64,000 nucleotides of DNA, from assembly GCF_044324875.1 (NCBI RefSeq), contig NZ_CP172185.1, one strand, 5' to 3'. Shown piece by piece: positions 56,127 through 56,732 of this stretch. Position numbers and translations under genes: made by a program. Under the pieces are notes generated by a model that saw nothing but the letters and a program-made list of their open reading frames with translations, searched no databases and had not been told where the DNA came from. Numbering within the stretch: position 1 is the first letter of the stretch; every line of letters starts with the position of its first letter. Origin of the DNA: Escherichia coli. Lineage in GTDB: Bacteria > Pseudomonadota > Gammaproteobacteria > Enterobacterales > Enterobacteriaceae.

Positions 56127-56346
56127 TGTTAACCTCTTCTGGTCTTAAAAGACAGCAACACGCCAGTAAGGTGTTGGTTCCCGGTACCCTGGTCAGGTAA
56201 GAAATGTTATAAGCCATCTCCCCGAAAGATTCAATAATCAACAGGTTATCGCTTACTATACATACAGCGTTGAAGAAAAATAAGGCAGATATAAAAAAGG
56301 CTCCACGAGGGAGCCTGATATTATTTTGTGAAATCCAGCGGCGCAT
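56116..56346 (-). CDS. ymcE: Small membrane protein YmcE (Sfa)
   Basis: MRRWISQNNIRLPRGAFFISALFFFNAVCIVSDNLLIIESFGEMAYNISYLTRVPGTNTLLACCCLLRPEEVNSEY. Confidence 0.8.
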   Translation of the reverse strand: MRRWISQNNIRLPRGAFFISALFFFNAVCIVSDNLLIIESFGEMAYNISYLTRVPGTNTLLACCCLLRPEEVNSEY

Positions 56347-56519
56347 GGTCAGTGCGTATTTGCAGCGCGACGTTATCAAAGGTGATCATCGTCGATTTAC
56401 AAAAAATACACTTTGCCCCTAAAGGATTTCGCTCCGTCACATCAAATGCCGATGTGCGGTACTGTGAACCATGACAACATGGACAGCGGAAATGGAGATG
56501 TTGAGTAATAACGGCAACC

Positions 56520-56732
56520 TTAGAGCGTAACAACGTTCGCTGCCGCAGGGCCACGTTGCCCCTGCTCAATAGAAAATTCAACTTTCTGATTTTCGTTCAG
56601 CGTGCGGAATTCATTGCTCTGGATGGCGGTGAAATGGACGAAAACGTCTTTGCTGCCATCATCAGGAGTGATAAAGCCAAAACCTTTATCTGCGTTAAAC
56701 CATTTTACTAAACCAGTCATTTTATTAGACAT
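56520..56732 (-). CDS. cspG: Cold-shock protein CspG
   Basis: [70 protein letters not shown]. Confidence 0.95.

Follow-up and report, generated by a model that had tools for sequence, protein, structure and literature searches.

Between the cold-shock gene cspG and ymcE, Escherichia coli carries a short open reading frame (ORF) with paired cysteine motifs, and this locus raises the question of whether the frame is a gene, where its translation begins and what kind of protein it would make. We analyzed it in a 64,000-nucleotide stretch of the E. coli contig NZ_CP172185.1 (the window). A preliminary description of the window, drawn from the letters alone, had reported an 86-codon ORF on the cspG strand with a paired CxxC arrangement, overlapping the 3' end of cspG out of frame, and had offered two readings: a small gene, ymcF for instance, whose true start lies farther inside the ORF, or an ORF that arose by chance. 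The ORF listing agrees with the reported layout. The ORF and cspG are read on the same strand, the last 62 nt of cspG are overlapped, and the two frames differ, since the distance between their starts (56732-56581 = 151) is no multiple of 3. At its other end, the ORF overlaps the annotated start of ymcE by 26 nt. The features concerned are the following:

56321..56581, minus strand: 86-codon ORF of the ORF listing, TTG start; it contains HLHFRCPCCHGSQYRTS and then GAKCIFCKSTM, and its 86-aa translation also includes HLHFRCPCCHGSQYRTSAFDVTERNPLGAKCIFCKSTM
56321..56509, minus strand: ymcF coding sequence, mapped from the RefSeq annotation of 100%-identical E. coli loci and from K-12 b4723
56510..56581, minus strand: non-genic 24-codon in-frame extension, made up of the cspG 3' end read in the other frame and the 10-nt spacer
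56520..56732, minus strand: cspG, cold-shock protein gene, annotated, directly upstream of ymcF
56116..56346, minus strand: ymcE (76 aa), annotated; it shares its first 26 nt with the ymcF 3' end

The flagged ORF is ymcF

The ORF corresponds to ymcF, a real gene that is already catalogued in K-12 and RefSeq and has a Pfam family of its own. It consists of 62 codons and a TAA stop (189 nt), and its start codon is an ATT at 56509..56507, 24 codons inside the 86-codon ORF. The encoded protein, M/I-TQHLHFRCPCCHGSQYRTSAFDVTERNPLGAKCIFCKSTMITFDNVALQIRTDHAPLDFTK, is identical to K-12 YmcF (b4723, YP_009518761.1). It matches Pfam PF23641 (YmcF-like) with 166.4 bits against a cut-off of 27 (E = 1.6e-49), residues 1-62 aligning with positions 1-62 of the 62-position profile; when the 86-aa form was used, the match began only at residue 25. 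The suggestion of ymcF with a shorter true start was therefore correct, as the RefSeq annotation and the position of the ATT indicate.

The locus is nearly universal in the species. A megablast of 56100..56760 found it in 5416 of 5426 complete E. coli genomes, in 5393 of them with at least 80% coverage, and the annotation there reads cspG, ymcF, ymcE and gnsA. In the window, the order and spacing of these genes are those of K-12 and of the 100%-identical strains. A second ymcF copy was sought in the window, and none was found.

The neighboring genes showed some features of their own. The ymcE ORF begins inside ymcF and holds the terminator-like hairpin and U-run that follow ymcF. Apart from fragments in two Citrobacter loci, tblastn detected ymcE in no genus other than Escherichia, and in related cassettes its position is taken by ynfN or ynfR. 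On the cspH side of the locus, two further genes meet:

57018..57230, plus strand: cspH, from the ORF listing
57218..58558, minus strand: appA, whose 3' end overlaps the cspH 3' end

The appA ORF of the window runs to ...ACALHQDK; K-12 AppA is presumably shorter and has a different end. The region that adjoins cspH in K-12, including gfcA and IS1D, is absent from the window; the K-12 layout at this point we take to be the ~10-kb etk-etp-gfcEDCBA (group 4 capsule) region. Of the 5426 complete E. coli genomes, 1674 share the cspH-appA junction, which makes it a common polymorphism and no artefact.

Because ymcF already stands in the K-12 and RefSeq annotations, its identification has little discovery value. 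The K-12 annotation reportedly originates from the cold-shock ribosome profiling of Zhang et al. 2018 in Mol Cell. In the full-text literature on ymcF and ynfQ, its prophage paralogue, we found incidental mentions only. The main texts of Weaver 2019 and Nakahigashi 2016 do not mention ymcF, and a search of the 'Cryptic Bacterial Microproteome' preprint returned nothing on it. The 'ynfQ' of VanOrsdel 2018 is a different sORF and not the YmcF paralogue.

Conservation of the coding frame

At least two CxxC motifs are present in 3 of the 187 window ORFs of 60-120 aa, so that a double CxxC is by itself weak evidence and the case for a gene rests on conservation. Over codons 1-47, dN/dS (Nei-Gojobori) was 0.04-0.06 relative to Escherichia albertii, Citrobacter, Salmonella and Yokenella, in those comparisons that allowed an estimate of dS; the synonymous sites of this core are near or past saturation, and the C-terminal 15 codons are less constrained. 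These comparisons show, at the level of sequence, that the ymcF coding frame is under purifying selection.

A word-indexed search returned 137 homologues. Their hosts are Escherichia, Salmonella, Citrobacter, Klebsiella, Raoultella, Enterobacter, Kosakonia, Leclercia, Kluyvera, Yokenella, Atlantibacter, Siccibacter, Pluralibacter and Shimwellia, together with a Caudoviricetes MAG. When 1.84 billion cluster representatives were searched exhaustively with a profile, only 42 representatives at 50% identity came up; the family is very narrow.

Translation probably starts at a non-canonical codon

Within E. coli, the 62-codon part and the 24-codon extension behave differently. Relative to K-12, the window carries five substitutions in the 62 codons, all of them synonymous, and two in the extension, both of which change the amino acid in that frame. 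The codon preceding the start is ATT in K-12 and GTT in the window.

Loci of the family numbered 191 in all, and we then aligned the start codon in 80 at the species level. It is ATT in 42, ATC in 3 and ATG in 31; three further loci have an ATG 3 codons before that position, and one has it as the next codon. In many of the ATT loci, the frame is closed by a stop only 4-10 codons before the ATT and offers neither ATG, GTG nor TTG in that interval, so a long extension cannot be coding there. A Shine-Dalgarno (SD)-like element lies upstream of the ATT:

56517..56522, minus strand: SD-like UAAGGU, overlapping the cspG stop TAA (56522..56520), with 8 nt from AAGG to the ATT

The same element, as cTAAGG or cTGAGG, is kept at equal distance in csp-adjacent loci of other genera. 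From the annotation and this comparative evidence we infer that ymcF translation starts at the ATT (AUU in the mRNA) 10 nt past the cspG stop. Standard ORF logic mis-delimits the gene because its start is ATT, and callers that require ATG, GTG or TTG will miss or over-extend members of the YmcF family.

A probable transcript shared with cspG

The gap between the cspG stop and the ymcF start is 10 nt. At 158 bits, cspG and its leader (56466..56888, minus strand) are recognized by the Rfam model of the cspA thermoregulator (RF01766). The RF01766 model is 428 nt long and was built on the whole cspA mRNA; its match extends 44 nt into ymcF, which places part of the small gene under an RNA-family annotation. 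Just past ymcF, a consensus scan detected the following element, which folds as predicted:

56292..56316, minus strand: intrinsic-terminator-like hairpin AGGCUCC-CUCGU-GGAGCCU followed by UUUUUU

This GC-rich hairpin of seven pairs begins 4 nt past the ymcF stop, within the ORF annotated as ymcE. A hairpin with a T-run is found within 90 nt of the stop in 46 of the 80 related loci, including all six Escherichia loci. Taken together, the SD-like element, the 10-nt gap, the terminator-like hairpin and the thermoregulator match suggest a bicistronic, cold-induced cspG-ymcF transcript. The PGAP product name for ymcF is 'cold shock small protein YmcF'. In published data, ymcF appears in the same list of differentially expressed genes as cspG and ymcE (PMC10920338), and YnfQ is listed as cold-shock induced (PMC11228462).

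The Rfam family STnc220 (RF02077), a Salmonella sRNA, scored 102 bits on the last ~40 nt of Salmonella ymcF plus the terminator (L015, 2647-2726; L024, 2647-2725). In appearance, STnc220 would thus be the 3' end of the csp-ymcF mRNA; a literature search for STnc220 returned nothing. The homologous stretch of the window, 56283..56363 on the minus strand, matched weakly (34 bits, E = 9.5e-4; gathering score 60).

The start codon follows the gene context

The association between start codon and gene context was analyzed in the 80 species-level genome loci, of which 40 have a csp gene directly upstream and 40 have no adjacent csp. With csp directly upstream, the start is ATT or ATC in 39 loci, 38 of them with a 9-10 nt gap, and ATG in the remaining one. 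Without an adjacent csp, the start is ATT or ATC in 6 loci, ATG in 30 and another codon in 4. The ATG copies of this second group lie mostly behind a stronger, AGGAG-type SD, and those of Klebsiella and Raoultella sit behind what appears to be the decayed 3' end of a csp gene. Start-codon choice thus tracks gene context, with AUU or AUC behind csp, and mostly AUG and a stronger SD after loss of csp. Parsimony on a weakly resolved NJ tree gave ~9 start-codon changes and 7 adjacency changes; the loci are not phylogenetically independent, and a single inherited event is probably not the cause of the association. We found no description of this link between start codon and gene context in the literature searched.

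From this pattern we infer translational coupling of ymcF to cspG. A stricter form, in which ymcF synthesis would depend entirely on ribosomes terminating at cspG because the AUU is near-silent, possibly with a contribution of IF3 levels in the cold, is conceivable, and we consider it rather doubtful. If it were true, ymcF would be a natural, conserved case of obligate coupling through a near-silent start codon, and YmcF, as a zinc-ribbon partner of Csp proteins with a phage origin, would through this coupling be held at a fixed, low ratio to CspG. The RNA fold around the ymcF start was not better than that of shuffled sequence (z = -1.47), so no structure-enforced coupling was seen there. A cspA-like 5' UTR was sought before the copies that have no adjacent csp, and none was found.

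Two loci of the set show another arrangement. In a locus labeled Escherichia sp. ESNIH1 (L069) and in an Enterobacteriaceae MAG (L041), an ATT copy without adjacent csp is preceded by an 8-codon mini-ORF at ~2470-2510, the end of which overlaps the ATT start. By eye, the mini-ORF of L069 reads ATG AAA AAA GGA CAC TAT TAT TAC TAA, and that of L041 differs at one codon; a related locus (L064) does not have the ATG. The mini-ORF may replace the csp gene as coupling partner in these two loci. Citrobacter braakii ATCC 51113 carries two ymcF paralogues on one contig, ~3.5 kb apart (L014 and L083). The ATT copy is separated from the csp gene before it by 29 nt, the largest such gap in the set, and is followed by ynfN and gns; the ATG copy lies ~440 nt downstream of another csp gene.

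Conserved cysteines and the predicted fold

The two cysteine pairs map as follows:

56474..56485, minus strand: first predicted metal-binding knuckle, C9-P10-C11-C12 (codons TGT CCA TGT TGT), with Cys9 and Cys12 as the conserved pair
56399..56410, minus strand: second knuckle, C34-I35-F36-C37, with Cys37, Ile35 and Phe36 invariant and Cys34 >90% conserved

When the alignment takes in the most divergent relatives (49 sequences), Cys9, Cys12 and Cys37 show no variation, and >90% of the sequences keep Cys34. Among ~120 homologues, each of the four is present in 118-119 (Cys34 and Cys37 in 118 of 121). The check on these pairs that the preliminary description had proposed, namely their conservation across enterobacteria, thus gave conserved Cys codons. 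In distant relatives Cys11 and His13 are replaced (CPKCHG, CPRCQG, CPSCGG, CPNCSS). The putative ligand set, as read from the alignment, is therefore a classical CxxC-(21)-CxxC. Other invariant or near-invariant residues are Q16, Y17, R18, S20, D23, N28, P29, G31, A32, I35, F36, K38 and M41.

AF2 modeling with 31 close homologues gave a poor model (pLDDT 55). When divergent relatives were added (49 sequences), the mean pLDDT rose to 76, with values >90 for residues 11-40 and a low-confidence tail. The top fold-search matches of the model were all zinc ribbons (TFIIE-alpha, TFIIB, eL43 and NrdR), none of them significant. A sequence-profile search of the PDB found no solved relative and returned motif-level matches only, to the CPxCHG fingers of UvrA and to the Rieske CPCHGSQY box. 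We consider a Cys4 metal-binding knuckle with a zinc-ribbon-like fold likely, and the zinc-ribbon label that YmcF had received beforehand is plausible.

Assignment to known families was also considered. No NCBIfam model scored above its cut-off for YmcF, and with the ECs_2282 family (NF047912) the score was 17.4 bits against a cut-off of 37, so YmcF is not a member. Some RefSeq entries are labeled 'cold-shock protein', but Pfam shows no cold-shock domain, and YmcF does not belong to the CspA family; tblastn with CspG, CspH and CspI matched only the neighboring csp genes. Membership of the rubredoxins was rejected, as the second knuckle is CIFCK and not the CPxCG signature and PF00301 gives no match. 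Membership of the Rieske [2Fe-2S] proteins was rejected as well: there is no CxH box, His13 is not conserved, and the resemblance is confined to the box-II-like CPCCHGSQY.

A related cassette in prophage and phages

The Qin prophage of K-12 carries a paralogous cassette, cspI-ynfQ-ynfR-ynfN-gnsB. Nine phage records encode a YmcF/YnfQ homologue, and seven of them are Escherichia lambdoid phages; the carriers include Tritos, mEp460, 2H10, HannyBb and PhiR phages. In Tritos, the sole phage locus inspected, csp-ynfQ-ynfN-gnsB (2278-3337) directly follows the lysis genes. Most of the phage records leave the ymcF-like gene unannotated, presumably due to its ATT start, and PHROGs v4 contains no family for YmcF. 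Since the same cassette is found in Qin and in lambdoid phages, the chromosomal cluster cspH-cspG-ymcF-ymcE-gnsA looks like phage cargo that has been domesticated, and the YmcF cassette would travel as a cargo module in lambdoid phages. The Qin locus also holds ynfU (4806-4976 of the K-12 Qin locus), annotated as 'putative zinc-binding protein', between essQ and cspB; it is small, Cys-rich and near csp genes.

Alternative explanations

The idea that the ORF arose by chance in the cspG 3' region, and that its cysteines are accidental, could draw on the few window ORFs that share a double CxxC, and on a conserved boundary that has no canonical start codon. It is contradicted by a dN/dS of ~0.05 with synonymous sites near saturation, by the 137 homologues spread over many Enterobacteriaceae genera and the presence of the family in lambdoid phages, by ligand cysteines that are invariant or nearly so, and by the existence of a curated Pfam family. 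The chance reading is already refuted by this conservation, and the probability left to it is negligible. That translation begins at an in-frame TTG or GTG within the cspG 3' end (56581, 56569, 56554 or 56533) and yields a longer true product of up to 86 aa is very unlikely. In Escherichia the frame is indeed open for 24-30 codons upstream of the ATT and offers TTG and GTG codons, and some entries from other genera are annotated as 70-72 aa; the frame stays open, however, because the overlapping cspG codons are under constraint. The upstream stops of many genera, the K-12 substitutions (two of two amino-acid-changing in the extension, none of five in the 62 codons), the start of the PF23641 profile at the ATT position, and the genera that have no adjacent csp and carry ATG exactly at the aligned position all argue against the longer form. 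It would take a good deal to make us believe that the functional unit is mainly an RNA, be it a 3'-end sRNA formed from the ymcF 3' end and terminator, like STnc220, or the cspG 3' UTR, with the ORF secondary; this is extremely improbable. The strong STnc220 score on the Salmonella ymcF 3' end and terminator, and the weak match of the corresponding window stretch, speak for it. The window match is far under the gathering score, an 80-nt RNA cannot explain codon-level purifying selection over all 62 codons, and an sRNA and a coding gene could coexist.

With a protein-coding ymcF, the nature of the metal site has to be weighed. YnfQ has been modeled (AF3) as rubredoxin-like, with Fe2+ at its metal site, in a 2026 review (PMC13348028), and the first knuckle of YmcF, FRCPCCHGSQY, resembles the Rieske box II CPCHGSQY. 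On that view YmcF would bind iron, as an electron carrier of the rubredoxin-like Fe(Cys)4 type or as a Rieske-like centre, and would not be a structural zinc ribbon. However, the rubredoxin family PF00301 remained unmatched even at E up to 10, and the Rieske similarity spans 12-14 residues with E of 0.09 or worse (0.09-1.2). His13 and Cys11 are replaced in distant relatives, and the second motif, CIFC, has no His, so that a 2Fe-2S Rieske site is not possible. The neighborhood, moreover, holds no conserved redox genes. We consider an iron protein improbable.

Proposed function of ymcF

The explanation that best accounts for the whole is that ymcF is a real 62-codon gene, co-transcribed with cspG, coupled to it through an AUU start, and encoding a Cys4 metal-binding miniprotein; as a joint statement we hold this to be very probable. 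The gene would most likely share its transcript with the cold-inducible cspG, which presumably supplies both the mRNA and the ribosomes. The mRNA would begin at the cspG promoter, include the thermosensing 5' UTR and end at the hairpin and U-run just past the ymcF stop. On it, the putatively weak AUU lies behind the SD-like UAAGG that overlaps the cspG stop, and YmcF would be made mainly by ribosomes that have just finished CspG, with an output below that of CspG. The predicted product is a basic miniprotein of ~7 kDa. Its core (residues 5-45) would present two CxxC knuckles, 21 residues apart, most likely holding one metal ion, Zn or perhaps Fe, within a fold of the zinc-ribbon or rubredoxin type; the C-terminal ~15 residues vary and are probably disordered. 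Our best guess for its role is that of a cold-induced adaptor that may bind nucleic acid or another protein, alongside the Csp RNA chaperones. The apparently conserved csp-ymcF coupling and the Cys4 site provide handles for work on cold acclimation.

Comparison with known systems

The K-12 ymcF locus has the same layout as the window: the gene lies 10 nt after cspG, overlaps ymcE, is upstream of gnsA and has an ATT start. YnfQ of Qin (b4724) is like YmcF a protein of 62 aa (66% identical) with the same four cysteines, encoded 10 nt behind a csp gene (cspI) and followed by small genes and then gns. Unlike YmcF, it is prophage-borne, has ynfR and ynfN downstream instead of ymcE, and its C-terminal tail is divergent. 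The putative zinc-binding proteins of the ECs_2282 family (NF047912) are similarly small CxxC...CxxC proteins of enterobacteria and prophages. In the fold searches, the top-ranked neighbors of the AF2 model of YmcF, below significance, are the zinc ribbons of TFIIE-alpha (1vd4), TFIIB (1pft) and eL43, in which two CxxC knuckles on beta-hairpins hold one metal.

As to initiation, AUU is a poor and rare initiator that is discriminated against by IF3, and it is known in infC and pcnB. With these two E. coli genes, ymcF would share the rare AUU start, a codon that gives low or regulated output. In ymcF, unlike in infC and pcnB, the AUU or AUC is found where a highly translated csp gene ends 9-10 nt upstream, which suggests that the AUU of ymcF serves reinitiation or coupling and not IF3 autoregulation.
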